Translations under genes and position numbers: made by a program
Assembly: GCA_965219915.1 (NCBI GenBank)
Contig: OZ244794.1
Location: 708,322-772,321, forward strand
DNA from: Rhodothermales bacterium
GTDB taxonomy: Bacteria; Bacteroidota; Rhodothermia; Rhodothermales; Bin80
Length of the DNA stretch: 64,000 nt
Direction of reading: 5' to 3'
In this document: one piece after another, positions 13,154 through 36,500 of the stretch
How the letters are laid out: each line of letters opens with the position of its first letter
Position numbering within the stretch: the first letter of the stretch is position 1
The notes under the pieces: generated by a model
The model's input: only the letters and a program-made list of their open reading frames with translations
Database searches by the model: none
Told to the model about the DNA's origin: nothing

Positions 13154-14226
13154 TGTCTGCAGCGGGCGGTAAGCGCAAAAGAAAATCTTCGCTCCAGATC
13201 TATAAGGATCTGAAAAAAGATTTTGAGGGAGGACGCTTTAAACCGGTCTATCTCTTCTATGGAGAGGAATCATACTTCGTAGATCAGCTGCAGCAGATTC
13301 TTATTGATCATACGATTCCCCTGGAAGATCGTGACTTCAACCTTGATGTAGTCTACGGACCGGATATAGCTGCTAAAGATGCACTGGGAATATGCCAAAT
13401 GGCCCCCATGCTGACTGAGCGACGTATTGTCGTCATACGGGCATTCGATAAGCTCAAGGGGAACCAGTTGTTTGCAACGCTGGCTAAATGGCCAAATCCA
13501 GCGGCAGTTGTGCTCCTGATTTGCGAAAACCGTCCCAGGTTAAATGCGAATCCATATAAAGCGCTGAAAGAAAACTCACAAGTCGCTCAGGTTGTCGAAT
13601 TCGCTCCGTTGTGGCGCAATCAGATGGGTTCGTTCTTACGTGAGTATGCACAGTCCCGAAGTTATAAGTTGGAAAGGAATGCTGAACAGCTGCTGATAGA
13701 GTTTCTAGGCACCGGATTGGCCCTACTCACCCAGGAGATCGAAAAGCTAATCACTTATGTGGGTTCGTCTGAAGAGAGAGTGATCACAGAACAGGATGTT
13801 TTTCAGGCCAGTGGACAGACTCGGGAGATCAACATATTTGAGCTACAGGATGCCATCACGGATCGCAGAAGGGTTGAGGCGCACAGGATTGCAGAGCAGT
13901 TATTGCTGGGTGCTTCTTCAAGGCAGGGTGAGTGTCTTCGAATTGTGTCCGTGCTAAGCCAACATTTCGTCAAGCTCTGGAAACTGCATGGCTGTCCCTC
14001 ATATGGCCTCAAGCCCGCAGAGATTACCAAGAGGACCGGCATTCCTTCCAACATGATTTATAAATACAGGCAGGCTGTACGCAAATGGTCACTACCAGAA
14101 ATCAAACGGGCCATGCAACTGTTTCTGAGTGCAGACAGCGAAATCAAAGGATTCTCGAAACGTAGCCCGCATGTAATCATGACACTTTTGATTGTGCAGC
14201 TTCTGTCTGAACCTTTGCGGTACTAA
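13153..14226 (+). CDS. holA: DNA polymerase III subunit delta
   Basis: The N-terminus is LQIYKDLKKDFEGGRFKPVYLFYGEESYFVDQL, with a later ...IFELQDAI... block typical of HolA. The start at ATG 13153 overlaps the upstream stop. The track start at 13039 would overlap the upstream ORF by 115 nt. Confidence 0.8.
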   Translation: MSAAGGKRKRKSSLQIYKDLKKDFEGGRFKPVYLFYGEESYFVDQLQQILIDHTIPLEDRDFNLDVVYGPDIAAKDALGICQMAPMLTERRIVVIRAFDKLKGNQLFATLAKWPNPAAVVLLICENRPRLNANPYKALKENSQVAQVVEFAPLWRNQMGSFLREYAQSRSYKLERNAEQLLIEFLGTGLALLTQEIEKLITYVGSSEERVITEQDVFQASGQTREINIFELQDAITDRRRVEAHRIAEQLLLGASSRQGECLRIVSVLSQHFVKLWKLHGCPSYGLKPAEITKRTGIPSNMIYKYRQAVRKWSLPEIKRAMQLFLSADSEIKGFSKRSPHVIMTLLIVQLLSEPLRY

Positions 14227-14855: not shown

Positions 14856-14932
14856 GGGCTCTTAGCTCAGTGGTTTAGAGCGCTCGCCTCACACGCGAGA
14901 GGTCACAGGTTCGAATCCCGTAGGGCCCACCA
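14856..14932 (+). tRNA. tRNA-Val (anticodon CAC), CCA encoded
   Basis: Hand-folded cloverleaf. Acceptor is gggctct/agggccc (one G-U pair). D arm is gctc-agtggttta-gagc. Anticodon arm is ctcgc-ctCACac-gcgag. T arm is acagg-ttcgaat-cccgt. The discriminator is A, followed by CCA. Confidence 0.9.
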
Positions 14933-17292: not shown

Positions 17293-17386
17293 TCAATGGA
17301 TCGTAGATGGTGTCAATTATATAACCGCCGGGCAGCATCATGACCCAGCACGTAATCTGAAACGCACTCACCGGAGCCGCTCACAT

Positions 17387-21947: not shown

Positions 21948-22043
21948 GAGAAAGCATGCCGGCCAATGGGCGTTGAGCAGGAGCCGGCGGTCAGGCTGGC
22001 AGTGGTTTTCGTTCAGGTTGGATCGACTCCAGCACCGTGGTAG

Positions 22044-22529
22044 TTAGTTTGGTTCACAGTCCAGTGCTTCCTCAATTTGCACAAACCTGACTGGATCCTG
22101 TGTTCGACGGATCCGAACGGCTTCAAAAGCAACCCCGGTTGAAAAAGATGGACGACAATCGGGGCCCGGGGAGAACAGCCGATAGGTTGCAACCACTGTA
22201 TCCCTAAGACTTTCAACGAGCTCAAAACGAAGGTCATATCCTCCCGCATTAACGTCAACAGCGGCAAGGAGGACCATTTCTGTTTCAAAGTCTGGTGACG
22301 TGAAGGGCATCAACGGCTGAAGTGAATCCGTATATGCGGTCCATGTATCCACATCTGTGATCAAGCGTATGGTGGTTGTGTCGATGGAAGCCTGAAGTCC
22401 GCGGCCCAGTGACACATAGGGGAGGAGTTTGGCTAGGTCTTCTTCTGTCAGTTCAGGTAGTGGCGCGGTCTCACAACTTGCAGAAAGCAGTAATGTCGAG
22501 ATCAATATTATGGAACTAAGTTTTTGCAT
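22044..22529 (-). CDS. Lipoprotein, possibly PrcB-like C-terminal domain
   Basis: The lipobox is MQKLSSIILISTLLLSAS|C from ATG 22529. The AAVDVNAGGYDLRFELVE block resembles the PrcB_C GGY motif. The family call is tentative. Confidence 0.45.
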   Translation of the reverse strand: MQKLSSIILISTLLLSASCETAPLPELTEEDLAKLLPYVSLGRGLQASIDTTTIRLITDVDTWTAYTDSLQPLMPFTSPDFETEMVLLAAVDVNAGGYDLRFELVESLRDTVVATYRLFSPGPDCRPSFSTGVAFEAVRIRRTQDPVRFVQIEEALDCEPN

Positions 22530-22574
22530 TAGCGTGTCAATGGTTCGTAACGCGTTCGTGTACATAAACTACTC

Positions 22575-22877
22575 ATGCCGCTTAAAACAGTTGATGTTGA
22601 TGCGCTGGTTGAACAAACAGGTAACCTGTTTGAAGCCGTTGCGATCCTTTCGAAACGCTCGCGCCAAGCCGCGATTAAAATGAAGTCGGAACTTGATACG
22701 CGCCTCGCGTACTTTGAGGGTTTCGATCCCGAACTGGAGGATCCGCATTTTCAGGAAGAACAGCGCCGCATATCTATTGAGCACGAGGAGCGACCCAAGC
22801 CGACGGAGGTTGCGGTCGAGGAAATGTTCAATTCCGAAATATACTTCCGGGATCCCACCACGGAGCCGGAAATCTAG
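22575..22877 (+). CDS. rpoZ: DNA-directed RNA polymerase subunit omega
   Basis: 100 aa. The N-terminal [15 protein letters not shown] matches the conserved omega helix (NxYExVxxxxKRARQ). It sits directly upstream of uvrA. Confidence 0.75.
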
Positions 22878-22895
22878 GGCGCAGCCCGGCCTGTC

Positions 22896-25802
22896 ATGGA
22901 AGGCCAAAATAGAGAACGCCCGGACGAGTATATTCTCGTCCGAGGTGCGCGTGAGCACAACCTGAGGGATGTGAATGTGGATGTTCCGCGCGACGAGTTG
23001 GTTGTCGTAACTGGTCTATCAGGTTCGGGAAAGAGTTCACTCGCCTTTGATACTGTTTATGCAGAGGGTCAGCGACGATACCTGGAAAGCCTGAGTGCAT
23101 ATGCACGGCAGTTTGTTGGGATGCCTGAACGTCCCGACGTTGATCATATCGAAGGGCTCTCCCCGGTCATTGCGATTGATCAGAAGACCGTCTCCAGGAG
23201 TTCGCGGTCAACGGTTGGTACGGTTACCGAGATATACGATTTTCTGCGACTGCTCTATGCACGCGCAGCGACCTCCTTCTCGGCAGCATCGGGCAAACCG
23301 CTTATCAGGCAGTCTACGGGCGAGATAATTGCAGCGATCCAGGAGTACCCTGTGAATTCAGAAATTGCGCTGCTTGCGCCTGTAGTTCGAGGTCGCAAAG
23401 GACATTATGGGGAACTCTTCGAGAGGGTGTCTCGCCAAGGCTATACCAGAGTTCGCGTCAATGGTAAGATCCGTGAGATCAAGCCTGGTATGAAGGTTGC
23501 CAGGTACAGAACGCACAACATCGAGATTGTAGTAGATCGTTTGCGGATTGAGGAAGGTATGGGGGCTCGCATAGCTCACTCGGTCAAGACCGCACTGGGG
23601 TTGGGGAAAGGAGTCTTGATTCTGGCAGAAGCGTCTGAAAAGGATCGCATCTTCAGTCGTCACCTATATGATCCTGAAACAGGAGAGTCCTATCAGGAGG
23701 CCTCGCCGAGGACTTTTTCTTTCAACTCACCGTTCAGTGCCTGCAAGGTATGTCGTGGCCTCGGCATACAGGATTGCTGGAATGAAGAATTGCTTGTGCC
23801 GGACCGCTCGCTCAGTATCAAAAACGACGCAATAGAACTCCTTGATTCCTGGAGGGACCAATACTTCATTGACGAGATAGCGTCGGTCTTAGAGAAACGG
23901 GGCTTTTCTTTAGATACGCCCGTGAAGGAGATCAGTAAAACTGCGTGGAATGAGGTACTGCATGGTTCCCATAAATACCATCAGATGATGGTGGGTGGCA
24001 CCAAGTACGCCTACAAATCACCAGATGGGCGGGGCGTTTACAGCTTTTTGGACACGCGATATAAATTTGCAGACAAAAGGGAGCGAAGAGAACTTGACTG
24101 TTACAGGACGAGTCGGCCGTGCACCGAATGTAAGGGGGGCCGTCTTTCCAGTGAGGCGCTTTCGTACAGAATTGCCGGAAAGACGATTGCTGACCTGACG
24201 CAGATGGATCTGATTGGTCTGCGTGAGTTCTTGAATACAGTTCGTTTTGGCAAACGACAAGCCCAGATTGCTGCACCCATTATTAAGGAGGTCCAGGAAC
24301 GCCTGATGTTCATGGTTGATGTTGGGGTTGGTTATCTAACCTTGGATCGACCGGCTGCCACATTATCCGGCGGAGAAAGCCAGCGTATTCGACTGGCCAC
24401 ACAGATTGGTACACAGTTAACAGGAGTCTTATATGTTCTGGATGAGCCCTCTATTGGGTTACATGCTCGGGATAACCGGCGTTTGATAGCATCCCTGCGC
24501 AGGTTACGTGATCTAGGCAACTCAATCCTGGTCGTTGAGCATGATCGCGATATGATAGAGTCAGCAGATCATATCATTGACATAGGGCCCGGTGCTGGTG
24601 ATCAAGGTGGGGAGGTTGTGTATGCTGGATCTCCTGCAATGTTACGGCAAAATGGCAGTTCAAAAAAGGGATTGACCTTGCCTTATCTCTTGGGACAGCG
24701 TCGCATAGAAATTCCAGAGAAGCGTCGGGAGACACAAAAGCAAGTCATTGTGCTTTCCGGGGCAACGGGCAACAACTTGAAGAACGTCACGCTCACCCTG
24801 CCCCTTGGGACGTTCGTTTGTGTGACCGGTGTCAGCGGATCGGGAAAGAGTTCGCTCATTAACCAAACGCTTGTTCCTGCACTCACGTACCGGATGAATC
24901 CTCGTACCCGGGTACGAGGATTGCCGTATGAGAAGCTGGATGGGTATTCGTTGATTGATAAGTTGATCAACATTGATCAAAAGCCAATTGGGCGAACGCC
25001 TCGGTCAAATCCGGCCACGTACATCAACTTGTTCACGGAAATCCGGCAGTTGTTTGCTAAACTACCGCTGTCAAAAGCACGGGGCTATAAGCCGGGACGA
25101 TTTTCGTTCAATGTGCGAGGCGGGAGATGCGAGACCTGTTCCGGGGCGGGTATTGATCGCCTGGAGATGAATTTTTTGCCTGATGTATATGTAGAGTGCG
25201 AGACCTGTCAGGGCAGGCGTTACAATCAGGAAACATTGGAGGTGTCCTACAAGGGTAAAACCATTTCGGATGTTCTGAACATGCGTGTAACCGAGGCGGC
25301 AGCCTTTTTTGCCAATCTGCCCAAGATTGCCAAGAAGCTGGACACGCTTCTCTCGGTTGGTCTGGGGTACATACGTTTAGGGCAGCAGTCAACCACGATT
25401 TCTGGGGGAGAGGCGCAGCGCGTGAAGCTGGCCAAAGAGCTTTCACGTTCGGCAATAGGGCGGACACTGTATCTATTTGATGAGCCAACGACGGGACTGC
25501 ATTTTGAAGATATCCGGTTATTTCTGAATGTTTTGCAGGAACTGGTGGACAGAGGCAATACGGTGCTTGTGATAGAACATAACCCGGATGTGATAAAAGT
25601 TGCGGATTACATTGTGGATATGGGCCCGGAGGGAGGTGAGGCAGGTGGAGAGATTCTTTTTGCTGGTTCCCCAGAGGGAATGAGTCGTCAAAATACTCAT
25701 ACAGCAGACTTGCTCAGGGAAATATTTTCGGGTGTGCAAGGCGAGCACGTTTCTGGTGATCCGGCAATTGAACCCGAAAGATCCCCCATGTATGGAGTCT
25801 GA
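22896..25802 (+). CDS. uvrA: Excinuclease ABC subunit A
   Basis: 968 aa. Two ABC modules ([48 protein letters not shown]) and zinc modules ([30 protein letters not shown]). Confidence 0.97.
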
Positions 25803-25950
25803 TTCATCAGGTGTGTAAAGGAAAAAATAATCGTCAAGGAGCAAGATTAGCCCTAAAGTCTCCCAATTCTACTTGGGCATTTTTTGAATTCAACGCTTAC
25901 AATGCAACTCGCTGTTCGCTTCTTTGCGCGAGTGCCTCATGGAACGAAAG
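25569..25950 (+). repeat. uvrA-tail repeat copy A1 (last 234 nt of intact uvrA plus ~150 nt downstream)
   Basis: Collinear with 28002..28388 over ~385 nt. Shares the uninterrupted blocks CTGGTGATCCGGCAATT and CCCGAAAGATCCC. Confidence 0.85.
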
Positions 25951-26080
25951 AAATTTGTCCTTGGACATCAATAGATTAGCAATCTGATAATGTGCAGCTT
26001 AACTGGTGGCAGGCCGAAGTATACAGGAAGAAGTAGTCACAGTGGTCAAGACTTGCCAAGGGCAGGCGCCGGGGACCCGG

Positions 26081-27925
26081 TCAAGGTAGAGTCTTAAACC
26101 AAGTCTTGATCTTCTGGGCCATCAATTCTCTGCGTAAAGCCAAAAATTCATCGTAATCAGGAACTGATCCGTCGAGGAGGGATAGAGGAATGCAGTTTTG
26201 CTTAAAGTTTTCCTCCAATTCTGCACGTTTAGTGATTCCTCCATACCGGATTTTTCCACCGCTAACTTGTTCAAGTAGTTGAGGGAAGTATATCATTGGC
26301 GGCGTGTCAGATATGGCGATGTTGATTGGGCTTTCGGTGAATGCATAGTTGGCGATCTGATTGTACCGTCCCCGGGGGAGTTTCTGTTTCATCAGATATT
26401 TGCGTGGATATACATGATGACGATCTCCCCCACTGAGCAGTAGGTTTTGTACAGTAATTGCAGTTGAGAGAAACCCTTTATCACCGAGGAATGCCTGCGC
26501 CGCTTGATACGCAATAAAATAGGGACTTGTTGAGCTAGAGGTTTCCATGTCTTGAAGCAGCATACCCGTCCAATAGCTCTCAGGAAGTTCGTTTTCGATA
26601 GTGGTCTCTACATATGGGCGTAACCCCTGAGCAGCGATTTGGCGGATATCGAGGTCGAACATAGTCTCCGGGCTTCCTGAGTAACGTCTCGTGAGGATTG
26701 ACATTGCATACCATCGACGGGTCAAGCTTGCAACTTTGGATAGAGAGAGCCCCTTTTCACGCCCTTCCAGGTAAATAATGAAAGCAAAGTTGACAGCATT
26801 CTGACTACGGATCATCTTGGATGTAAGGAATCCCGAAGAGCGTAGAATCATGGTCAGCCGGTCGAAGTGGGTCTTGCTCATGAAGGCAGAGACACCTTTC
26901 TTCAACTGGTCGAAAGTATTATCTACGATCTCTTCTTCGTACTCGCGAGTCTCGAAATTACGACCCGATAGAAGGGATACCAGATCCTGTAGCTTGCCAC
27001 GCTTGAATTTTGAAGTAAATGCCACCCGTAGCATATCGGTATAGGTTGGATCGTAAAGGTCATCGTTTACCCCTTTTAGCCAAGTCATTTTTGGCCAAAA
27101 TGGAGAGTTCACAAAATCGGAGTCCTTTTTGATCTCCGGGAAGGATTCAGGAGCAACGGCTAAATGACAGAAGTAGTCAATGGCCTTACGCAAGAGTCCG
27201 CCTCCGTGGGTTTCATTTGCCGCGATTTTTGACATCGCGAAGTCTGCTTGGGAGAGAGTAGTACCAGCTGAGTTAACACGGATGAAAATTTCAGTTACTT
27301 GATCTATATCAAGTTGCGCATCCAGTGCAATGACCCCAACTTGGTTGTTGGCGATTTTGAGAACATCTTGGATTGCTTGGTGGACATACTTTGGTAAGGT
27401 ATTCTTATTGCGTTTAGTGTAAATCGTAACAAACTCATACTGATCAAATTCGGGAGCAAAGATCTCGGCAACATCATTAATCCAGGCCCGATCTTTTTCA
27501 ATGGCCGGATTGCATACATCGAAGCGTTTTTCCAAAGGATTGAACGCGATACGAATTCGCACTGATTTATAATCTTTGGTAAGTACTGGCTGTCCCAGGA
27601 GTGCCGCCATGAGTGCGGTAACTCGTTGTTGGCCGTCAATCAGTATGCGTTTTCCGTTCGAAAAAGTACCATCCTTTAGTTTGATTGAAGGGTTGCGCCA
27701 GGAAATCAGATAGCCGATCGGATAACCCTGATACAGTGAGTCAAGTAGATTGCGCACTTGTATTGAGTTCCATACAAAAGGACGCTGGATTTCGGGAATC
27801 GCAATATTGTTCGTCTTCACCCAAGTCAGCAAAGTCCCTACCATGTGAGAGGTAACAGAATATTGTTCTCGCATTGCCATCAGATGTTGCTCTTTGTTTG
27901 TATTATCCGAAATCGATCCCACCAC
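26081..27925 (-). CDS. DUF262 (ParB-like NTPase/nuclease) + C-terminal His-Me/DUF1524-like domain protein, GmrSD-family type IV restriction-like
   Basis: 614 aa. The N-terminus has [33 protein letters not shown] and [12 protein letters not shown] (DUF262 hallmarks). The C-terminus has [13 protein letters not shown]...[18 protein letters not shown] (an HxxP...N nuclease-like motif). Confidence 0.8.
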
Positions 27926-28001
27926 AAGGTACTACAGATTCAGGAATTGGCATAAATATGTTGGTAGTTGCAAGCGGTACTCAGCAGCAAAATTTTTTGG
28001 A

Positions 28002-28388
28002 GTGATAGGGCACAACCCAGATGCAATAAAAGTTCCCGATTACAGTGCGGATATGGGTCTAGAGGGGGGCGAGGCCGGCGGGGAGATCCTTTTTGCTGGT
28101 TTTCCCGAGGAGATGGTTCGTCAAAATACCCATGCTGCAGACTTGTTCAGGCAATCATTTTCCGGTAAGCAATGCAATCAGGTTGCTGGTGATCCGGCAA
28201 TTTAGCCCGAAAGATCCCGATGTATGTAGTCTGATTCGTCGGCTATGTTTAGAACATTTATATTCGTCAAGGAGCAAGCTTAACCCCTCGAGTCCACCAA
28301 TCCTACATGGGCATTTATTGAATTCACCGCGCGCAACGCAGCTCGCTGCATTCTCGTGGCGAGTTCCTTCAGGAACGAAAAAATTGGG
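28002..28388 (+). pseudogene. Relic copy (A2) of the uvrA 3' end plus downstream flank
   Basis: Translation is [67 protein letters not shown]. The uvrA C-terminus reads [72 protein letters not shown]... A TAG replaces the GAA codon. The downstream flank is also collinear (tcgtcaaggagcaag..., gggcattt.ttgaattca..., ggaacgaaa). No upstream uvrA body is present. Confidence 0.85.
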
Positions 28389-28507
28389 GAATGATACGTC
28401 TAATAAGTGACCCACTTCAAATTCTTACCGATTATTGATCGTCCTGAGGGGCGTGTTCAGCAGTGTCTTTGCGTACTCTTCAGGATTCATAGGAATAGAT
28501 CTATTTA

Positions 28508-28815
28508 CTGCATCCCAATCCTTGGCGGTCTCGACGGCTAGTCAGTCTGGCATTAGCGCGTTTGGTCTCGAAGGACGGTAACGCATGGTTTCGGGTTTGC
28601 GAGAAGCTGCCGCGATCTTTGGGCCAGGCTATTAACCGGAGCAACATGGGTATCGGGAGGGACGAAGCGCCCAGCATGCGGTAAAGCGAATCCTCCATCT
28701 GTTGAACCGCAGCCACCTTGAAGGCGTGGACGCGGACTTATCTACCTACCTTGGCGAAATCCCACGCGCGGGATTGATGAAAAGCCTGGATCGTCGCATC
28801 AGTGACGTGCGGATG
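28508..28815 (+). pseudogene. Decayed reverse-transcriptase fragment (group II intron / retroelement-type RT motifs)
   Basis: Pieced together across two frames and two stops: ..PWRSRRLVSLALARLVSKDGNAWF.. / RMVSGLREAAAIFGPGY* / PEQHGYREGRSAQHAVKRILHLLNRSHLEGVDADLSTYLGEIPRAGLMKSLDRRISDVRM. This is collinear with the RT motifs xDRxxQ..L..vLEPIFE..F...SYGFRPGRSxHxAl and vvDADIxxFFDxIxHxxLmxxLxxRIxD. It is truncated before the YxDD motif. Confidence 0.5.
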
Positions 28816-28838
28816 CCTAGGGGTGGCGAAAAAATAAG

Positions 28839-29720
28839 TTATCCTGACATTTCTTCATGGTACCGCAATATTCCAGTGGGTTGCGGGCTTATAGTATAAT
28901 TCCACTGTGGGATTTCAGGATTCTGTTTTCGGTGAGTTGCGTCATTTGCTCGTCAGAAACTTTGGTTCCTTTCTCGTGGTCTCTTTGGATGGACTTTGCC
29001 GTGACGGTGAGTCGAGATTGTGTATTCGTGGTTCTCATATAGTTCAGTATGGTATCCATGGACTCTAGGGGGAGGTCGGTCCAGTTATTGGCGAGTTCAC
29101 TGGATGGGCTGTGTTCAGTGGAATTCCACTTTGATGCACCGCGGGGATAGTGTGCAACAGTCACCTTAGGATTAAACGGAGTTGCGAGGATATGCTGTAG
29201 GAAGTATTTCTACGGTCGGGGGCGATATCTATTGCTGCCTCCACTAACGGCAAGAATACTGAGTGCATGTACACGGGGATACTGGAATTGCCCCATTTCT
29301 TTCCACCAGTTTGCGATGCAGCCCACAGCAACTCGGGCGTATCATCGGAAGACCCGACAAAGAAGGACCCCGTGTTGCACGAAGGTCATACACGCCACTT
29401 GGGATAGTGATGCCGCTCGCTAAAGAGCGGAAGTCGTGATCACAAACTCACTTCGGTATTCGCAGCCAAGATGTGCCAGGATTGCGAAAGCACCCGATGA
29501 GTTCTTTTTTCTTGGCATCCACGCTTAGGCTAGGGAGGCATTCCGAGTTGGCCCGCGTCCGAAAAATAGGAATCTGCGTGAACTGCTGGTCTCGGTCAGG
29601 ACGCTGGGATCCGGACAACATATTGAGACTGTTGAAGAAAAGCGTTCAATTATGGAGGAGAAGATTTCAATCGTCAAGAGATCCTGAGTTCAACAAACTC
29701 TGCTTTGTTCAAATGAATCA
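28839..29720 (-). mobile_element. ISAzo13-family (DDE_Tnp_ISAZ013) transposase remnant, multiple stops/frameshifts, 5'-truncated
   Basis: Minus-strand pieces are ..QRPDRDQQF..SVDAKKKELIGCFRNPGTSW.. / PSGVYDLRATRG / ..WWKEMGQFQYPRVHALSILAVSGGSNRYRPRP*KYFLQHILATPFNPKVTVAHYPRGASKWNSTEH..LPLESMDTILNYMRTTNTQSRLTV..GTKVSDEQM.. / NYTISP. They are collinear with the conserved ISAzo13 transposase blocks (SVDTKKKELxGNFKN, PYGxYD, ADGGGSN, HYPPGxSKWNxIEH, WNYTIxP). Confidence 0.8.
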
Positions 29721-29819
29721 TTTCTCAACATTCTCTTGCACGATGTGAGTGTGTCGCATTACTTAATGAGATCCTGCACATTTGTTGATTATTCTCGTAC
29801 ATTCGCTTGGGGTTAACTA

Positions 29820-32663
29820 TTGAAACTCATGGTTCCCAGAGTTAGTTATTTAATTGTTTCCCTCCTTTACATAGGATCCAGTTTTTGTCTTTTAACCGAG
29901 CCAGTTCTTGGCCAGACTGCGACCGTGGTTGGGAAGGTTACCGATTCGGAAACCGGTAAATCATTGATTGGGGCGAACGTGCAGGTTGCTGGGACCTCGA
30001 TTGGAAGTGCCACTGATATTGAGGGTAATTTTGAAATTTCGAACCTTCAAGCTGGAATCCATATCCTGCGAGCAAGTTTTATAGGGTATTCAGCTCAGGA
30101 GTTGGCGGTTACTCTGGCTGAGGGAGAGAATTATGTCTGGAACGTTGCCTTAGACCCGGGAACAGATCTAGACCCCGTGCAGGTGACAGCAGGACGCCGG
30201 AATGAGAAGACGTTGAATGCACCCTCTTCCATTGATGTCATTACTTCGCGAGACCTTCAATTAGATGTCGCACAGACAACGGCGAAATCACTCCGAAATG
30301 TGACCGGGTTGGATATGGTTCAGACCGGCGTGGATCGCTACGAAATCGTACTCCGCGGATTCAATGACGCTTTCTCAAGATCTACACATGTACTCACCGA
30401 TTACAGGAAGGCAGCGGTTGCCTCCATTGGGGTCAACCTGCATAATGTCATGCCAAGTCTGGCCATTGATACGGAACGGATTGAAATAGTTCGGGGGCCG
30501 GGATCCGCACTTTATGGACCTGGTGTAGATTCAGGAGTGATCCACTACATCTCCAAAGATGCATTCAATTACCCAGGAGCTACGATCTCTGTTTCAGGTG
30601 GTCAAAGGTCTATGCTCAATGTTCAGGGACGTGTGGCTACGGTTCTAGGCACAAATCTCGGTGTCAAAGTGATTGGCAGTTACGCAACATCGGAGGATTT
30701 TACTCTTGAAGGGTGTGATGCTGCACTCCTCAAAAGTGAAAGGTTTAGTGAATGCCCTGATCCCGAAGATGCAGTTCAGTTGTTTGTTGATGGGGTTCGC
30801 GAAACCAAAAACCGCAAGCTTGTGCTGTCCAGTACTGTGGACTTGCGCTTGGGCAAATCAACCACTCTTTCGTTGAGTGGGGGAATTGGAAATCTGGATG
30901 GTGCAATGCTCAGCAGCCTGGGCACAATTCAGGCAAAGGGAATGGTTGCCAGCTATGCTCAGATTCGGCTGTCCAGCGGTCCTCTCTTTGTACAGGCGTA
31001 TATGAATTCAATCAATTCGGGGAACTCCTATATCTATGGTGGAGATCCTGTTCAAGAATACTCCGAAGAATTTTCCGTGCAAGGCCAGTATACGCAAGAG
31101 ATTGGGTCTAGACAGCAGCTGATTGCAGGAGTGGACCTACGATTTGATCGTCCTGATACCAGAGCAATTGTTATCGAACGCATCGATGGGATTGCAGGGC
31201 TTGACGAATATGGTGCATACCTGCAATCGACTACACAGATCTCAAATAGACTCAAACTGACACTCGCCCTTCGGGGAGACTACAACAATATCGTACCCGA
31301 TCTTCAATTATCTCCTCGCGTCGCACTCGTGTTAAAACCAACTCCTTCCTCAGGTCTGCGTGCAACCTATAACCGTAGTCTCTCTTCACCGCTGTCGACC
31401 GATTACCTGTTGGATTTAGTGGTAGCTTCCCTTGGGCCGCTCACTGTGCGGGCCCGCGGTGGGGCAACCGGATTTACCTTTGAAAGAAATCCCAACTACC
31501 TTGAACTTGGTGCACCTACGTCGCTTGTTGCTTCCAGTATGCTCCCGGGAATGGAAGGATATCCAACTCCCGTTGGAATAGATACAGGGTTCCTTTATGG
31601 GTTGATTTACGATGGTCTAACAATAATTCCAGATGATGAACTTGCACGAATACTTGCCGATGCGGGACTAGATATTCCCCCTCAGCTTCTGCCCCTCCTG
31701 AAGCAGGGATTGAACCCAGAAGTGACTCCAGTTCAGGGATTCAGTCCTGGGATCCTTAGTCTCGTGAACCTGAGTACACTCGAGCTCAAAATGGCCCCCG
31801 AGTTGAACAATCTTCAGGATACCGGACCAATCAAGCCAACCATCACTCAATCTTGGGAAATTGGATATAAAGGAATTATTCGTGATCATATTCTCTTCGC
31901 ACTGGACGGGTACTACAGCAGAAGAAAAAATTTTACAGGTCCACTTCAGATTAAAACACCATTTGTTCTGGTTCCAAATCTGAAACAGGATCTCATTCAA
32001 GACATCTCAGCTGGACTGGCAGCAAATTCGGACGTTGCGAATGCACTGGAGTTATTTGGGCTGACCCCTCAGTTGGCTGCAGAAATGCTCGTCGATATTG
32101 CGGGCAGTGATCTGCCAGATAGCGAAACTCCAGTGGCAATTGTACAGACAAACGAGAACAACAAGGGAGCGGGAAATTTTCCTGAACTGATGCTGACCTT
32201 TCCCAACTTTGGAGATATCCAGTATTTTGGCATGGATGTTTCAACTCAGATCATCGCCAGTGAAAAACTGATGTTTTTTGGAAATGCATCCTGGGTAAGT
32301 GATGATTATTTTGACCATACGGAGATCAACGAGGAGTCAGAGGATCTGGAATTGGCCCTCAATGCGCCGGGATTCAAGTTTAAGATCGGCGGTCAATACC
32401 AACCAAAGAACGGTTTTTCGTTCACGGCATCGGGACGGTTTACGATGGGATTTCCTGTTATTTCTGGTCAGTATATAGGGAATGTACCGAGCTATACGGT
32501 GCTTGATGTAGGCATCGGATATGCGATTCATAAAGCCGGATTCCGTGCTGATCTGGGAATCAACAATCTTTTCGACAGTAACCACCGCGAATTTGTCGGT
32601 GCCCCCCGGCTCGGGCGTATTGCAACTATTAGGCTCACGTATACAACGGATCGCAGCGGTTAA
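29820..32663 (+). CDS. TonB-dependent receptor with N-terminal carboxypeptidase-regulatory-like domain (start TTG 29820 or ATG 29829)
   Basis: 947 aa. Signal peptide, then the CarboxypepD_reg block VVGKVTDSETGKSLIGANVQVAGTSIGSATDIEGNFEISNL, then the plug (ERIEIVRGPGSALYG), then a long beta-barrel. Confidence 0.9.
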   Translation: MKLMVPRVSYLIVSLLYIGSSFCLLTEPVLGQTATVVGKVTDSETGKSLIGANVQVAGTSIGSATDIEGNFEISNLQAGIHILRASFIGYSAQELAVTLAEGENYVWNVALDPGTDLDPVQVTAGRRNEKTLNAPSSIDVITSRDLQLDVAQTTAKSLRNVTGLDMVQTGVDRYEIVLRGFNDAFSRSTHVLTDYRKAAVASIGVNLHNVMPSLAIDTERIEIVRGPGSALYGPGVDSGVIHYISKDAFNYPGATISVSGGQRSMLNVQGRVATVLGTNLGVKVIGSYATSEDFTLEGCDAALLKSERFSECPDPEDAVQLFVDGVRETKNRKLVLSSTVDLRLGKSTTLSLSGGIGNLDGAMLSSLGTIQAKGMVASYAQIRLSSGPLFVQAYMNSINSGNSYIYGGDPVQEYSEEFSVQGQYTQEIGSRQQLIAGVDLRFDRPDTRAIVIERIDGIAGLDEYGAYLQSTTQISNRLKLTLALRGDYNNIVPDLQLSPRVALVLKPTPSSGLRATYNRSLSSPLSTDYLLDLVVASLGPLTVRARGGATGFTFERNPNYLELGAPTSLVASSMLPGMEGYPTPVGIDTGFLYGLIYDGLTIIPDDELARILADAGLDIPPQLLPLLKQGLNPEVTPVQGFSPGILSLVNLSTLELKMAPELNNLQDTGPIKPTITQSWEIGYKGIIRDHILFALDGYYSRRKNFTGPLQIKTPFVLVPNLKQDLIQDISAGLAANSDVANALELFGLTPQLAAEMLVDIAGSDLPDSETPVAIVQTNENNKGAGNFPELMLTFPNFGDIQYFGMDVSTQIIASEKLMFFGNASWVSDDYFDHTEINEESEDLELALNAPGFKFKIGGQYQPKNGFSFTASGRFTMGFPVISGQYIGNVPSYTVLDVGIGYAIHKAGFRADLGINNLFDSNHREFVGAPRLGRIATIRLTYTTDRSG

Positions 32664-32756
32664 AGGCTACCCACCCGAGTCATAGTTCGTATGTAATGCA
32701 ATATCTGCAATCGGTCTCGTCACGGAGAACTGTAGAATCATGAATCGGCGTCAATA

Positions 32757-32786
32757 TGTTTGGCGATCCGGCAATTGAGTCCGAAA
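32757..32786 (+). repeat. Third, short relic (A3) of the uvrA 3'-tail core
   Basis: gtttggcGATCCGGCAATTGAgtCCGAAA here vs gtttctggtGATCCGGCAATTGAacCCGAAA in uvrA. The 14-mer GATCCGGCAATTGA is exact. A possible further remnant is atgaatcggcgtcaatat, resembling uvrA atgagtcgtcaaaatac just upstream. Confidence 0.6.
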
Positions 32787-32878
32787 CCGCGCTGAATTGT
32801 AACAACTAGGACGCTGCCGACTGAGGTTTCGGCGTAGCTAATGTCTGTCTTGGTCTGATCCGGCCTAGTGCTGAACTA

Positions 32879-34072
32879 TTAATCGGACCGTAGTCGATTG
32901 ATCAAATCTCTCGCCAGAGTTTCCCCTATGGCAAGTGACGCGGTTGCGCTTGGCGAACTCGCATTTAGTACACTCAGCGCTCGTCGACTTTCTTGGACAT
33001 ACATGCTTCGAATCATCGTGCCATCAGTCTTGACTGCCTGAGCGCGCACTCCACTTCGTGCAGGCCTAAGATTAGAAAGTTCAACTGCGGGAATTAGTCG
33101 TTGTAATACCCGCAAATAATACTTTTTGCTGAGGCTTTGCAGAATTTCTCGTGCACCAGTTCGCCACAATGAACGTGCGAGATGCCAACTACCAGGCCAA
33201 AGGACTGTATCCAGGATGTCTCCGCGTGCTACTGTGAAGCGTTTGTATCCCTCCCGGGATAATGCCAGAACGGCGCTTGGGCCACAAAGAACACGGCCGT
33301 CAGTCATACGGGTTGCATGTACGCCAAGGAAGGGGACGCGATCATCTCCCGCGGGATAAATAAGGTGGCGGCAGTACTGTCGGGGTAGGAGTTCGTAATA
33401 TTCCCCTCTGAACGGTAATACACGAATAGTGGGTTCCTGCCCCAGAAGTTTAGCTACGCGGTCGGCATACAATCCGGCACAGTTAAGAATGTGCCGCGCA
33501 TGGACCGTAAGATTGTCGGTCTCCAGAACAATATGGTGACGTTCCACGTGTGCCCTGTGCACGTATGCATTGGTCAATACCTCAGTACCTTGTTCCTGTG
33601 ACAGCGACATCAGGCACTGTACAACGCCCCGAAAGTCTACGATACCAGCATCACGCACCAGAAGTGCTTTATTACCGGCTGCATAGGGCTCACGTTCTAG
33701 GAGTGCGTCTCGGCCAATGATTTGGCATTGCACACCGTTTGCACGTCCCCATTCGTGTAGGGTGTTTAGACGAGCCAATTCCCGGGGGGTACTGCCTATG
33801 ATCACTTTGCCGCAGAGCTCGAATGGCAGGTGGTTTGTCCGGCAGAAATTTTCCATTAATCGTCGCCCTCGCAGACACGTCTGTGCCTGATTCGACCCTG
33901 GACGATAGTAGATTCCTGAGTGCAGCACTCCAGAATTACGGCCTGACTGATGCGTTGCGACGGAGCTCTCCTTCTCAAGAACCAAAACTCGACAATCACA
34001 GCGCTGGCCCAGGTGCCAAGCTGTCGCAAGGCCTACAATTCCTCCCCCAATGATAGCTACGTCACACTCCAC
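32879..34072 (-). CDS. lhgO: L-2-hydroxyglutarate oxidase/dehydrogenase (FAD-dependent, LhgO family)
   Basis: 397 aa. The N-terminal FAD fold is DVAIIGGGIVGLATAWHL, followed by SGRNSGVLHSGIYY. The overall layout matches LhgO. Confidence 0.75.
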   Translation of the reverse strand: MECDVAIIGGGIVGLATAWHLGQRCDCRVLVLEKESSVATHQSGRNSGVLHSGIYYRPGSNQAQTCLRGRRLMENFCRTNHLPFELCGKVIIGSTPRELARLNTLHEWGRANGVQCQIIGRDALLEREPYAAGNKALLVRDAGIVDFRGVVQCLMSLSQEQGTEVLTNAYVHRAHVERHHIVLETDNLTVHARHILNCAGLYADRVAKLLGQEPTIRVLPFRGEYYELLPRQYCRHLIYPAGDDRVPFLGVHATRMTDGRVLCGPSAVLALSREGYKRFTVARGDILDTVLWPGSWHLARSLWRTGAREILQSLSKKYYLRVLQRLIPAVELSNLRPARSGVRAQAVKTDGTMIRSMYVQESRRALSVLNASSPSATASLAIGETLARDLINRLRSD

Positions 34073-34080
34073 AAGTTGGA

Positions 34081-35382
34081 CTAGGAGCTCTCTGTTGCAG
34101 GTAAACCGTGATGCACAACCTGTTCCATGGCATCTACAAAACGGTTCAGTTCCTCCAAGGTTGTGAACAGGTTAGCCGTAACTCGCAGGCCTTCAAATTC
34201 CGCGTGTTTAATTGGCGTGGCGATTATGCGGTGCGCATCCCATAGGTGCGTGCCCAACTTTGCCGTGTCAATGCCCTCAATCTGGACCGTGCCAATACAA
34301 CAGGAGAATTCGGGCTTGAGACTGGTGTGCAGACGAACTCGATCGTGCTGCATGAGGGGTTTTGCCCAGTAGTCACGCAGGTAACGCAGGCGATCCTCTT
34401 TGCGTTTGGCTCCAATACCCTGATGAAAGGTCAGCGCTTCGGCAATAGCTATGTAGTTAGCCGCAGGGTGCGTACCAATCTCTTCGTATTTGCGAATATC
34501 CTCATCCATCCCCTCGGGAGCTGCCATCAGCGGCCATAAGCCCTTGATTTTATCCTTGCGCACATACAATAGTCCCGTGCCATGTGGTGCTAATAGCCAT
34601 TTGTGCAGACTGGAAGCATAGTAGTCACAATCCAGATCTTCATGCTTAAAATCGAAATGACCAAACGCGTGTGCACCGTCCACGATAACCGGGATTCCCT
34701 TGCGTCGAGCCATTTGGACTACCTGTTTCACAGGCAGGATTTGACCGGTGATATTGATCATGTGACACATGAGAATAGCACGGGTACGGGGGCCAATGTT
34801 CTCTTCAAACAGGCGAACGATCTCCCCAGGATCTTCGGAGGGTATAGGTATGGAAAATTGTTTAAGGACAATTCCATCACGCCGTTCTCTTTGCTTGAAC
34901 GTAGTGATCATGCGTCCATAGTCCTGCGTGGTAGTTAACACTTCATCACCAGGCTCGAATTCCAGTCCTAATTGACATATCTGAAGCCCTTCACTTGCGT
35001 TGCGAGTCAGTGCGATCTCCTCGGAATCACAGCCAAACTCCAAAGCCAAGCGCTGTCGGACTCCCTCGCGCTGAGGTTCCAAGATGCGCCACATGGTGTA
35101 CACCGGTGCTTCGTTGGAGTAGTCCAGATGACCTTTCATAGCCTCTTGGACAATCCTTGGAGAAGGACTCACACCGCCGCTATTGAGGTTGATCAGACTG
35201 CGGTCAACCGTGAAGGCTTGTTGCACCTCCAGCCAAAAAGTCTCATCACGCGTTACATCGCCGGTTACACCTGCTATGTGTTCAAGTACAGCCGGGACAC
35301 GCGCAGGTACCAGTGAGCCGTATGTGAGGGCTGCGGCTGCGGGGGCCCCAATCTGGTAAAGAAACTGCCTGCGGTTTGACAT
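34081..35382 (-). CDS. Class-V-fold PLP-dependent aminotransferase/epimerase-like enzyme with Tat signal
   Basis: Start at MSNRRQFLYQIGAPAAAAL (twin-arginine motif). The class V core is present, with the PLP-lysine context SSLHKWLLAPHGTG. Confidence 0.75.
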   Translation of the reverse strand: MSNRRQFLYQIGAPAAAALTYGSLVPARVPAVLEHIAGVTGDVTRDETFWLEVQQAFTVDRSLINLNSGGVSPSPRIVQEAMKGHLDYSNEAPVYTMWRILEPQREGVRQRLALEFGCDSEEIALTRNASEGLQICQLGLEFEPGDEVLTTTQDYGRMITTFKQRERRDGIVLKQFSIPIPSEDPGEIVRLFEENIGPRTRAILMCHMINITGQILPVKQVVQMARRKGIPVIVDGAHAFGHFDFKHEDLDCDYYASSLHKWLLAPHGTGLLYVRKDKIKGLWPLMAAPEGMDEDIRKYEEIGTHPAANYIAIAEALTFHQGIGAKRKEDRLRYLRDYWAKPLMQHDRVRLHTSLKPEFSCCIGTVQIEGIDTAKLGTHLWDAHRIIATPIKHAEFEGLRVTANLFTTLEELNRFVDAMEQVVHHGLPATESS

Positions 35383-35468
35383 GATAAAACCCTTCTTTAA
35401 GTGATCAGTAAACAAATTAAGATATTTCATTCACTGATATAGGGTTAATTGTGCGGTCCGAGGTACGC

Positions 35469-36500
35469 ATGTTTTATTGGGTGCTTGTCTGTGTACTAAT
35501 TGCAAACTGCGACGCAGGAGACCGGCAAAACGATACGGTCTCCGTGATCAGAGCCGTGACACTTGACGCTCGGAATGAGCCGTCCGCAGAAATGCTGCCT
35601 AAGCTAAAGGAATCCGGGCTTACGCATATAACGCTGGTGCAGTTTGGTTTTCAGCGGGACGCTGACGTTCCCGAGATCCGAATGAACCCCGATGCAAGAT
35701 GGTACAGTGAAAGTGATCGGGCGGCACGGGAATTGTCTAAAAAAGCGGACAGCCTCGGAATGGGGATCATCCTGAAACCGCATCTTTGGCTTGGTCGCTA
35801 CAGTGCTGAGGGCCAGTCGAGAAGCTCAATTGGTTATTCGGAGGAGCATGATTGGCAGACTTGGGAAACGCAGTACACTAAGCTCCTCATGCACTATGCA
35901 CACCTCGCCGAAGAGATTGATGCGGCGATGCTCGTAATTGGTACTGAACTTGCAAGAAGCGCCCATGAGCGCCCCGATTATTGGCGCGGACTCATAAAGG
36001 ATATTCGTGCTGTGTATCAGGGCGATCTGACTTATGCGGCTAACTGGTGGGAGGAATACGAGGAAATTGAGTTTTGGGATATGCTGGATTATATAGGTGT
36101 GCAGGCATATTTCGAACTTTCCGATGAACCCAACCCAACCAATGGGATGTTGGCAGAGGGCTGGGAGCCTCATATTGAGGCACTTGCGGGTCTCTCCAAG
36201 CGTATGAATTGCCCCATTCTTTTTACTGAAATTGGCTACCGGAATGTCCCTGATGCGGCCGCCAAGCCATGGCGTTGGCCCTCACGTGGAGAAGCGGATT
36301 TGGTGGAGCCGGATGATGATCTTCAGGCCAGGCTATATGAAGTATTTTTTGATGAGTTGTGGGACAAACCCTGGTTCAGTGGTGCTATTCTTTGGAAATG
36401 GCACGGTGATCGCGACCGGCCTCGATCCTATCTAGATTTCACTCCACAAGGTAAGCCGGCCGAAGAAGTTATCCGTTCCCGGTTCACATCCAGCCTGTAG
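35469..36500 (+). CDS. Putative TIM-barrel glycoside hydrolase (clan GH-A-like) lipoprotein
   Basis: The signal/lipobox is MFYWVLVCVLIAN|C. Candidate catalytic Glu residues lie in VIGTELA and LFTEIGY, about three strands apart as in 4/7 hydrolases. The family was not resolved. Confidence 0.5.
   Translation: MFYWVLVCVLIANCDAGDRQNDTVSVIRAVTLDARNEPSAEMLPKLKESGLTHITLVQFGFQRDADVPEIRMNPDARWYSESDRAARELSKKADSLGMGIILKPHLWLGRYSAEGQSRSSIGYSEEHDWQTWETQYTKLLMHYAHLAEEIDAAMLVIGTELARSAHERPDYWRGLIKDIRAVYQGDLTYAANWWEEYEEIEFWDMLDYIGVQAYFELSDEPNPTNGMLAEGWEPHIEALAGLSKRMNCPILFTEIGYRNVPDAAAKPWRWPSRGEADLVEPDDDLQARLYEVFFDELWDKPWFSGAILWKWHGDRDRPRSYLDFTPQGKPAEEVIRSRFTSSL

Follow-up and report, generated by a model that had tools for sequence, protein, structure and literature searches.

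The 3' end of uvrA occurs three times in the DNA analysed here, and the question is how a housekeeping repair gene came to leave copies of its own tail on both sides of unrelated genes. The window is a stretch of 64,000 nucleotides from a Rhodothermales bacterium, and the features of interest are collected in Table 1. The first-pass annotation of the window took the copies as the signature of serial site-specific integration into the end of uvrA, each element carrying a replacement gene end. We compared the copies with one another and with the corresponding interval in related genomes, and arrive at a different interpretation.

Table 1. Features of the uvrA–dao interval and its neighbourhood (window coordinates)
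Feature	Positions	Strand	Remarks
uvrA, functional copy, 968 aa	22896..25802	+	Pfam UvrA_inter, UvrA_DNA-bind, ABC_tran
A1 coding part	25569..25779	+	native uvrA tail, ends in 26-nt core 25754-25779
flankY (A1 copy)	25780..25955	+	allele-specific; replaces ancestral uvrA downstream flank
DUF262 (GmrSD_N) gene	26081..27925	-	public gene call: 599 aa, start 27880
A2 left junction	28002..28009	+	microhomology GTGATAG(A)
A2 coding relic	28002..28212	+	displaced/duplicated uvrA tail, aa 892-961
flankY' (A2 copy)	28213..28388	+	74% to window flankY, 80% to L175's, 98% to A2 of L173
Stretch between flankY' and IS relic	28389..28838	.	Pfam, Rfam: no matches
ISAzo13-family DDE transposase pseudogene	28839..29620	-	frameshifted and truncated; PF07592, two frames, E 2.7e-32 / 1.6e-18
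TonB-dependent receptor	29820..32663	+	Pfam CarbopepD_reg_2, Plug, TonB_dep_Rec_b-barrel
Remnant left of A3	32692..32760	+	ends at deletion joint
A3	32761..32786	+	last 26 nt of oldest uvrA-tail relic
flankX'	32787..32921	+	ancestral uvrA-dao intergenic region and last 14 dao codons
dao	32879..34072	-	FAD-dependent oxidoreductase (DAO family, 'lhgO-like'), convergent with uvrA; Pfam DAO, E 4.6e-57
amt5	34081..35430	-	class-V aminotransferase; Pfam Aminotran_5

The three uvrA ends and the DNA between them

The three copies are real. A blastn comparison, as the first-pass annotation had proposed, aligns A1 (25569–25955) collinearly with A2 (28002–28388) at 77.4% identity over 389 columns (E 2.5e-80), close to the three quarters estimated by eye; the coding portion aligns without gaps at 80% identity, and the left edge of the repeat is abrupt, at 25569/28002. 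A2 is open in frame for 67 codons and then reaches a TAG, in agreement with the approximately 68 codons previously noted, and its coding relic is 82% identical to the uvrA of L003. A3 matches the A1 core at 23 of 26 nt (E 0.003). The 14-mer GATCCGGCAATTGA is found exactly at 25758 and 32765 and with one mismatch at 28191, and with 0.05 matches expected its presence in both A1 and A3 is beyond chance, as had been claimed. The placement of the core in a non-conserved tail was also correct: it sits in a lineage-specific C-terminal extension of UvrA, and the distant homologues in L005 and L006 end right after ..FS. The 17-nt stretch that had been singled out as best conserved between A1 and A2 is indeed their longest exact run, but it has no privileged status, since in a shuffle test at 76% identity over 391 columns the probability of a longest run of 17 or more is 0.62 and the median is 18. 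The 26-nt core is conserved no better than the remainder of the 385-nt repeat.

The window uvrA is 94% identical in nucleotide sequence to that of L003 up to 25779, and the coding part of A1 lies inside this block, which is common to L003, L177 and L175. Homology to relatives of the flankX type breaks exactly after CCCGAAA, and flankY contributes the last seven codons and the stop of the window uvrA. None is found in L003, L004, L177 or L178; flankY is present in L090, L092, L173 and L175. The window copy contains a weak terminator-like hairpin at 25862–25877. Rightward of A3, similarity runs on through 32787–32921, a sequence 75–76% identical to that directly 3' of uvrA in L003 and L177 (75% for L003). 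A3 itself corresponds to the end of a relic of about 330 nt in L003, L004 and L173, and of 65 nt in L175. At the position of the remnant to its left, L173 and L003 have 470–660 nt made up of N-terminal dao' and C-terminal amt5' fragments and about 300 nt of uvrA'.

The region between A2 and A3 had been described as carrying reverse-transcriptase and IS debris and a TonB-dependent receptor. The last two are confirmed, but a six-frame Pfam search of 28389–29820 at E<=1 matched an ISAzo13-type transposase only, and the reverse transcriptase was rejected. The transposase pseudogene retains a C-terminal motif, ..WNYTISP.., with a stop at about 28841. Profile positions 1–61 are absent and inverted repeats were not found, indicating that this is not an intact IS; its boundaries could not be drawn. 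Among the relatives, 28389–28838 occurs only in L173/L174. The receptor is 94–96% identical in L003, L004, L173 and L175, and absent from L178. An Rfam search of 22000–36000 gave a single sub-threshold chance match. A tRNA-type att site is excluded, because no RNA element was detected at the locus and the sole tRNA of the window is at 14856.

Alleles of the uvrA–dao interval in relatives

All of the genomes compared are metagenome assemblies of uncultured bacteria; the UvrA proteins of the close relatives are 86–96% identical to that of the window, and L005 and L006 are more distant. From the uvrA tail to the point where conservation resumes, the close relatives show at least six allele states: no additional DNA (L003, L177), another, full-length GmrSD of 702 aa (L004), the same DUF262 gene as in the window either without A2 (L090, L092) or with it (L173/L174), flankY with no DUF262 gene (L175/L176), and a pair of genes, AAA_31 and AlbA_2/HATPase_c_4, with no TonB receptor (L178). 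The interval is bracketed by uvrA on one side and dao–amt5–GH113 on the other in the window, L003, L004, L173, L175 and L178, and in L005 and L006 uvrA and GH113 still enclose a variable interval. The comparison of intervals thus bears out the expectation of a hotspot with variable cargo. The clean empty site that had been predicted to join uvrA directly to the sequence right of A3 was not found among the relatives compared.

The left joints of the cargo differ, lying after GGTGAT in L004, after CCCGAAA in the flankY alleles and after CCCGAAACCGC in L178, and the right breakpoints fall at varying points within the IS relic. Positions 26250–29400 of the window are 97–100% identical to L173, compared with 85–95% for the uvrA flank and 75–80% for flankY; a block of about 99% identity inside more diverged flanks shows recent transfer of the allele by homologous recombination. 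L090 and L177, which represent two allele types, were recovered from a single metagenome, ERZ25069412. A scan of JGI metagenomes with the C-terminal half of UvrA found no relative above 69% identity and hence added no alleles. The 563 nt unique to L175 gave no match save a short repeat in L004.

The DUF262 protein of the window matches Pfam GmrSD_N (E 4e-31), with no GmrSD_C match, and PADLOC HEC-05, the latter match being confined to the N-terminal part. Homologues 67–73% identical are spread across phyla. Those at 82% in other Rhodothermaceae occupy another site, flanked by a peptidase M32 / AAA_21 gene and a proline racemase gene and away from any uvrA, and their homology is limited to the ORF. 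We considered whether the gene travels with flankY and rejected this, as the 82–84% homologues elsewhere share the ORF alone, within about 20 nt either way. GmrSD-type (type IV, modification-dependent) restriction enzymes pair an N-terminal DUF262 domain with a C-terminal DUF1524 (His-Me finger) nuclease domain, and the L004 protein has both. In L004 the cargo is this different, full-length GmrSD (GmrSD_N, GmrSD_C and DUF5655; PADLOC Orf5, E 3e-195, and mREase_IV); in L006 it is an AAA_15/AAA_21 ATPase (NsnB/HEC-03B/PDC-M55A), in L005 a Panacea-domain protein and in L178 SLFN_AlbA_2/HATPase_c_4 and AAA_31. Predicted defence-type genes are found 3' of uvrA across Rhodothermales. The cargo therefore appears enriched in predicted defence genes, with an anti-phage role suggested by homology. 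No integrase, resolvase or large serine recombinase domain was detected among the interval genes of L001, L173, L175, L177 and L178, nor any recombinase domain by Pfam in the long ORFs of the window or the six frames of 28380–29830, which upholds the earlier remark that no tyrosine or serine recombinase is visible. These data support a hotspot flanked by core genes, with predicted defence cargo and without the hallmarks of mobile elements.

Origin of the displaced ends

At the A2 joint the sequence on the left matches the DNA upstream of the DUF262 gene in L090/L092 and that on the right matches uvrA from 25569, and the 7–8-mer at the joint occurs in both parents, that is, in uvrA and in the DUF262-upstream DNA of L090/L092, which lack A2. 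At the joint between amt5' and uvrA', C(G)TCAAT, the parental homologies overlap by 5–7 nt, and the deletion joint at A3 in the window falls between AGGTT(T) repeats. The outer junctions of flankY and of the DUF262 gene show no repeats. In L003, L004 and L173 the TonB gene lies between direct repeats of about 467 nt and about 80% identity, each composed of uvrA tail, intergenic region and dao 3' end, and inside the right repeat end a dao' N-terminal / amt5' C-terminal fragment abuts uvrA'. A 5' fragment of dao is duplicated beside TonB in L003/L004, and the fragment attached to the old uvrA relic in relatives derives from amt5 (window 33964–34281 is 78% identical to L003 17772–18088). Such a layout is that of a host segment duplicated from the uvrA tail through dao to the amt5 end, with the TonB insert inside it. 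Because the oldest relic in L003, L004 and L173 is joined to pieces of host amt5 and dao, the event was a duplication of host DNA and not the insertion of an element. A weak 42-nt similarity (E 0.009) of the DNA left of A3 to the region upstream of DUF262 in L092 was judged to be chance once the deletion joint had been resolved.

Changes specific to A2 are distributed over the codon positions as 8/7/9 (8 synonymous, 16 non-synonymous) and those of the other relics as 12/12/10, 13/10/11 and 10/9/11, compared with 8/8/35 and 12/12/52 for functional uvrA alleles; the remaining states of A2 all occur among the functional alleles of the clade. The relic-specific substitutions are evenly spread, and the relics are therefore products of neutral decay of the clade's own uvrA and not mimics borne by an element. 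The raw A1–A2 differences (11/10/22) are mildly biased, but a foreign origin of A2 on this ground was rejected because the bias is gone after removal of functional-allele polymorphism. The flankY alleles are 71–83% identical among themselves, with those of A1, A2, L175 and L090/L092 about equidistant. At 12.5%, the neutral age of A2 comes close to the depth of a single branch in the allele radiation and fits a strain-derived and a sister-chromosome origin alike.

In our view it is probable that the uvrA–dao gap is a hypervariable hotspot and that the extra tails are fossils of two microhomology-mediated segmental duplications, with displacement of the 3' end. The host clade, uncultured sponge-associated Rhodothermaceae, would gain and lose mostly defence-type genes in this gap without a dedicated recombinase, each duplication being anchored by ordinary homology within uvrA. 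In the older event, common to all close relatives, a segment that begins near codon 833 of uvrA, takes in the intergenic region and dao and ends with the last ~80 codons of amt5 would have been placed in tandem, with the new joint at C(G)TCAAT. An ISAzo13-family element and the TonB-receptor gene would then have destroyed most of the upstream dao copy, and the uvrA tail downstream would have turned into a pseudogene; in the window, a later deletion between AGGTT repeats would have cut this pseudogene to the 26 nt of A3. The second event may have started from an allele in which flankY and a DUF262 gene were already present immediately after ..CCCGAAA; there another uvrA tail with flankY, now A2, would have joined the DUF262 upstream region at GTGATAG(A). 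The product of either event may have arisen by unequal exchange between sister chromosomes, giving a tandem duplication, or by homology-facilitated illegitimate recombination (HFIR) of DNA from a related strain, in which the resident gene end is pushed downstream. Both routes fit the data equally. Completed alleles would later have spread among lineages by homologous recombination. That the junctions crowd into the final ~25 nt of uvrA would arguably reflect selection, because only the dispensable tail and the short spacer before the dao 3' end (an interval of roughly 75–145 nt) would tolerate insertions.

We do note several observations that count against the two duplications. Three cargo joints of independent origin are confined to about 25 nt. 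Rightward of GTGATAG, what separates the window from L090/L092 is a replacement (180 unrelated nt versus A2 and about 720 nt) and not a clean indel, so at least one further event is needed; L090/L092 could in principle be deletion derivatives that end by chance at the A2 edge. On neither strand do the 180 nt resemble the window more than shuffled controls do. Neither expected intermediate, one with two DUF262 copies for tandem duplication or one with full flankY directly before 28389 onward and no DUF262 for an HFIR recipient, is among the alleles found, and tblastn and blastn at lax thresholds found no trace, after A2, of the second DUF262 copy that a simple tandem duplication would lead one to expect.

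The clustering of joints is a point in favour of the integration proposed by the first-pass annotation. Here the ~26-nt core would be the target in the uvrA 3' end, incoming elements would bring a replacement gene end, and A1, A2 and A3 would be the attL, hybrid att and attR of a tandem array whose integrase is lost or acts in trans. The sharing of the 26-nt stretch by all three copies, with a 14-mer far above chance for the window, the end of window/flankX-type homology exactly where this stretch ends and the differing cargo are all as this would predict. We nevertheless regard such integration as unlikely: the repeats are long (385–467 nt) and evenly diverged with no better-conserved core, the joints carry microhomology and lie at several positions instead of one, and A3 is all that is left of a 330-nt relic joined to amt5' and dao'. 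Moreover, L090/L092 have the same DUF262 gene yet no A2 at its 'right end', and the sequence right of A2 is flankY and not an attR-type host flank, so that additional elements and deletions would be required. The clade's own allele was the starting point of the A2-specific changes, which are neutral, and no allele examined has a recombinase. Scans of viral contigs gave zero matches to the core and, for the flankY motif, 14 chance matches of 15–27 nt.

The ISAzo13-family transposase might instead have caused the duplications, deletions and capture of cargo, through adjacent deletions, one-ended transposition or composite-transposon capture. The IS relic adjoins the variable segment in every close relative and the right breakpoints of all alleles are in or at it, the orthologous relics being cut at window-equivalent positions 29105, 29261, 29478 and 29697. 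These breakpoints truncate the transposase gene internally, however, and adjacent deletions mediated by a transposase would break at the IS end. Every lineage carries an orthologue of the relic, already degraded (79–87% identity, consistent with neutral decay), the microhomology joints of the uvrA relics are far from it, and no cargo is bracketed by a second IS copy or inverted repeats, which together make this mechanism improbable.

We allow a slender chance that the uvrA tail is the true target of an unrecognised, integrase-free mode of insertion, by a recombinase encoded in trans or by cleavage and repair promoted by DUF262/GmrSD proteins; if so, defence genes would be placed repeatedly in one and the same ~25-nt interval, leaving the displaced tails as a by-product. 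Nuclease-driven targeting, in which a nuclease of the GmrSD-family genes themselves or of a partner cuts near the uvrA tail and homing-like repair copies the gene in, is very doubtful. The sequence-unrelated genes for the 599-aa (window) and 702-aa (L004) proteins have the same orientation and left joints 19 nt apart, and the roughly 70% identity of the 599-aa family across phyla points to frequent transfer; but its closest homologues, at 82%, are at the other locus described above, cargo after uvrA in other lineages is not GmrSD, and homing does not produce flank duplications. GmrSD enzymes are modification-dependent restriction enzymes, and are not known as site-specific homing enzymes. Chimeric assembly of co-existing strains is scarcely credible as the source of the repeated tails, even with several alleles co-occurring in the same samples and all sequences derived from metagenomes, given that the window layout recurs in a 3.55-Mb contig, in the Logan assembly L002, made independently from a different run, and in L173/L174 from other samples (A2 98% identical), and that copies 20–25% diverged are beyond assembler confusion.

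Comparison with known systems

Islands and prophages with tyrosine recombinases integrate into the 3' ends of tRNA, tmRNA and protein genes, where the duplicated gene end forms attL and attR. As in these, direct repeats of a gene end flank inserted DNA at the uvrA locus and the gene is intact. The locus differs in that it has no recombinase, its repeats extend over hundreds of nucleotides at about 78% identity and lack a crossover core, fragments of other host genes are attached to one repeat, and the microhomology joints are at varying positions. Repeated gene ends around cargo are in themselves no evidence of att sites or of a lost integrase, a caution for annotation.

Spontaneous tandem duplications with short-homology joints have been studied in Salmonella and E. 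coli, in which they are normally unstable and lost. The uvrA duplications resemble them in the head-to-tail segment and in a novel joint with a few nucleotides of identity between otherwise unrelated sequences. Unlike them, two have been fixed at the uvrA locus, probably because one copy was quickly disrupted or diverged.

HFIR and '3'-end displacement' with orphan gene ends have been proposed at Rhs, CDI and T6SS effector loci (PMC5361080). There and, as proposed here, at uvrA, the conserved upstream part of a gene serves as the homology anchor and the incoming module provides the new 3' end; earlier 3' ends pile up downstream as orphans, the process takes place without an integrase, and finished arrays are handed on by homologous recombination (PMC5361080). 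The layout of the window, with A1 functional and A2 and A3 as collinear relics in the same orientation downstream, is that of 3'-end displacement. At Rhs, CDI and T6SS loci selection keeps the displaced ends as functional toxin/immunity modules, whereas those of uvrA, a housekeeping repair gene, have no function and are decaying neutrally, with the cargo situated outside the gene.

Chromosomal hotspots for defence genes that lack any recognisable mobile element are known in E. coli (hotspot #37) and as the core defence hotspots of P. aeruginosa, and their mode of mobilisation has been called unclear (PMC10121019). The uvrA–dao locus shares with these a fixed site between conserved genes, differing cargo of defence type and, frequently, the lack of any mobility gene (PMC10121019). 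It differs in its host, uncultured Rhodothermaceae, in its position between convergent uvrA and a DAO-family gene, in also holding a non-defence TonB-dependent receptor, and in keeping junction fossils that point to a mechanism. The locus bears on how defence genes turn over at hotspots free of dedicated machinery: two displaced ends, a microhomology deletion and a 99% block suggest that plain illegitimate recombination and homologous exchange are enough to build and spread such a hotspot.

Origin of the three uvrA tails

We ran the blastn comparison of the A1 region with the window that the first-pass annotation had suggested, and the three copies of the uvrA tail that it described are indeed present. 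In this self-blast of 25400-26100, A2 (28002-28385) matches A1, the native tail with its downstream flank, with 77.4% identity over 389 columns (E 2.5e-80), and A3 matches at 23 of 26 positions (E 0.003). A repeat finder gave the same registers and pairwise alignment agrees, with a sharp left edge to the A1/A2 similarity at 25569/28002 and a gradual fading near 25955/28388. The A2 reading frame continues for 67 codons before a TAG. A1 and A3 share the 14-mer GATCCGGCAATTGA exactly and A2 departs from it at one position, where 0.05 matches are expected by chance; the 17-nt stretch previously singled out as the best conserved is expected by chance at 76% identity over 391 columns (P=0.62). The layout is not an accident of assembly, since a 3.55-Mb ENA contig, a Logan assembly made independently and two homologous loci from other samples (L173 and L174) all show it.

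Features of the window between uvrA and the GH113 gene
Feature	Position	Strand	Remark
uvrA	22896-25802	+	
A1	25569-25955		native uvrA tail and flank
DUF262/GmrSD_N gene	26081-27925	-	
A2	28002-28388		downstream copy
TonB-dependent receptor gene	29820-32663	+	
A3	32761-32786		downstream copy
DAO-family oxidoreductase gene (dao)			beyond TonB, first
Class-V aminotransferase gene (amt5)			beyond TonB, second
GH113 gene			beyond TonB, third

After ..CCCGAAA, A1 and A2 run into flankY, an allele-specific flank of about 175 nt, and A3 and the related relics run into flankX, the ancestral uvrA-dao intergenic region with the 3' end of dao. FlankY is missing in L003, L004, L177 and L178. In two relatives, L090 and L092, the order uvrA-flankY-DUF262 is found again and the sequence is 88-90% identical to that of the window; the similarity ends at GTGATAG(A), beyond which lie 180 unrelated nucleotides. 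This 7-8-mer is the start of A2 and is also present in uvrA at 25569, so the A2 joint is a microhomology joint between uvrA and sequence upstream of DUF262. To its right the window and L090/L092 differ by replacement instead of a clean indel, which requires at least one additional hidden event. A2 is present in L173/L174, 98% identical to the window copy; L175/L176 retain the first 106 nt of flankY and have neither DUF262 nor A2.

The history of A3 is visible in relatives. L003 has a UvrA with 96% identity, and there 133 nt of flankX adjoin the end of uvrA; they match the sequence to the right of A3 in the window, the last 14 dao codons included, with 75% identity. Beyond flankX are the IS relic, TonB, an N-terminal dao fragment (dao'), a C-terminal amt5 fragment (amt5'), a uvrA relic of about 330 nt (uvrA') and the real dao and amt5; L004 and L173 are built in the same way. 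TonB is flanked by repeats of about 467 nt (uvrA tail, intergenic region and dao 3' end) that are about 80% identical, the right-hand one being joined to the host amt5/dao junction. The topology is that of a tandem duplication, or of an equivalent single-crossover product, of a host segment with its ends at uvrA codon ~833 and amt5 codon ~368, and the IS and TonB would afterwards have taken the place of the middle part of the upstream dao copy. Where amt5' meets uvrA', 5-7 nt, C(G)TCAAT, belong to the homology with both parents. The window has lost amt5' and about 300 nt of uvrA' in a deletion with both ends in AGGTT(T) repeats, and A3 is the 26-nt stump of the deleted relic; the corresponding stump in L175 is 65 nt. 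The left border of the 26-nt core common to the three copies is therefore a deletion joint and its right border is the point at which A1 and A2 switch to the other flank, so that the two borders are unrelated. We also note unique replacements on either side of TonB in L175/L176, including in L175 563 nt of DNA without a match (12991-13554) and a 227-aa ORF without a Pfam or PADLOC match (16616-17299); the relic region to the right of TonB is thus also variable.

The first-pass annotation held that integrating elements had carried replacement gene ends. Among functional uvrA alleles (n=7) the variable sites number 8/8/35 by codon position, and the states unique to A2 number 8/7/9 (eight synonymous and 16 non-synonymous). 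The older relics show 12/12/10, 13/10/11 and 10/9/11, compared with 12/12/52 in functional alleles, and only seven changes are common to all three. This even spread indicates that the relics began as ordinary uvrA alleles of the clade and then decayed neutrally by ~11-12%, and that neither A2 nor the older relics were kept as replacement ends borne by an element. The four flankY alleles (window A1; A2; L175; L090/L092/L173-A1) are pairwise 71-83% identical, so A2 dates from about the time at which these lineages radiated.

Allele states and cargo

Allele states were scored within the clade from the uvrA tail to the point at which conserved sequence resumes. The six states found, with different cargo, support the earlier proposal of a hotspot. 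The orthologous IS relic is cut by right-hand breakpoints at four different positions.

Allele states downstream of uvrA (n=6)
State	Loci	Content
1	L003, L177	flankX only
2	L004	702-aa GmrSD (GmrSD_N, GmrSD_C and DUF5655), inserted after GGTGAT
3	L090, L092	flankY-DUF262
4	window, L173	flankY-DUF262-A2
5	L175, L176	truncated flankY and 563 unique nt
6	L178 (86% clade)	AAA_31 and SLFN_AlbA_2/HATPase_c_4 genes after CCCGAAACCGC, directly upstream of dao; without TonB or duplicate

The host is an uncultured member of the Rhodothermaceae, with sponge-metagenome MAGs as its nearest public genomes. Its 599-aa DUF262 protein has family members 67-73% identical across several phyla, and at about 70% identity the family spans Bacteroidota, Gemmatimonadota, Alpha- and Gammaproteobacteria and WOR-3; the protein is strongly conserved and widely transferred. 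As it has no recognisable GmrSD_C domain and PADLOC matches only in its N-terminal part, we name the gene a DUF262 defence candidate and not a GmrSD enzyme. Some 350 C-terminal residues are without a Pfam domain. The 82% identical homologues of other Rhodothermaceae occupy a different locus, with similarity limited to the ORF. There (L083-L089), between peptidase M32 and proline racemase genes, the DUF262 gene adjoins an AAA_21/AAA_15/DUF2813 ATPase gene, and in L091 it is also beside a DUF4276 gene, the latter forming with the ATPase a putative OLD-like pair; this locus looks like a second defence islet.

The full-length GmrSD gene at this spot in L004 (14306-16414, minus strand; PADLOC Orf5, E 3e-195) encodes a protein without tblastn similarity to the window DUF262 protein at E <= 1e-5, and the L004 UvrA reads through the joint to end in ..VSGDVV*. 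In L177, a one-base insertion near the uvrA end (~12845-12865) gives a 954-aa product ending ..GKQDGAGFW in an otherwise L003-type allele, and could be a real frameshift in a dispensable tail or a long-read error. Defence-like genes also lie immediately after uvrA in more distant relatives among the Rhodothermales: the AAA_31 and SLFN_AlbA_2/HATPase_c_4 genes of L178 (13028-15264), a SocA/Panacea-domain protein in L005 (14064-14609) and an AAA_15/AAA_21/DUF3696 ATPase (NsnB/HEC-03B match) beside two unknown ORFs in L006 (14320-17598). Their gene content suggests an order-wide tendency.

The reverse-transcriptase debris reported previously was not found: all that 28380-29830 shows at the protein level is the relic, on the minus strand, of an ISAzo13-family DDE transposase with a frameshift. 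The adjoining ~450 nt (28389-28838), from the A2 flank to the transposase pseudogene, has an orthologous stretch in L173/L174 and no other protein, RNA or DNA match; it may be an IS end or a further relic.

Proposed turnover of the uvrA-dao interval

Finished alleles pass between lineages. Window 26250-29400 and L173 13350-16500, which take in the greater part of DUF262 and some of the IS relic as well as A2 and the unassigned region, are 97-100% identical, compared with 85-95% for uvrA and 75-80% for flankY. Such a block between more diverged neighbours indicates transfer by homologous recombination, and it is a recent import, the crossovers of which lie near 26100-26250 and 29400-29550. A single metagenome yielded both L090 and L177, with different alleles. 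Between L003 and L004 the identity changes near locus position 14134, from 97.3% over the upstream 14 kb to 93.5% over the downstream 7 kb, so for this pair the hotspot doubles as a recombination boundary.

The best-supported interpretation is integrase-free turnover at uvrA-dao. Homology in uvrA would anchor the exchange and the other end would be joined illegitimately at a few nucleotides of identity, so that the resident gene end is duplicated or displaced. The partner DNA could be the sister chromosome, giving a tandem duplication, or that of a related strain, by homology-facilitated illegitimate recombination (HFIR); no intermediate of either kind was seen among the alleles examined. Displaced tails would then decay and be trimmed by microhomology deletions, and homologous recombination would spread the finished alleles.

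Serial integration at an att site, as first envisaged, does not agree with the neutral relics, the host-gene fusions and the microhomology joints. Nor was any recombinase domain found in the uvrA-dao intervals examined (28380-29830 in six frames; genes called in L001, L173, L175, L177 and L178), an absence that the first-pass annotation had already reported for the window. The joints do lie close together, within the last ~25 nt of uvrA, probably because the tail past ..FSG is lineage-specific and dispensable and because only a short spacer precedes the dao 3' end; we consider a process targeted to the uvrA tail very improbable.

Integrase-free turnover places the locus among known kinds, as a defence hotspot flanked by core genes combined with 3'-end displacement by illegitimate recombination. 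HFIR and C-terminal displacement, described at T6SS/Rhs loci (PMC5361080), are the closest described processes, and among described types of locus the nearest is the defence hotspot that has no recognisable mobile elements (PMC10121019). What distinguishes uvrA-dao is that its junction fossils are unusually legible.
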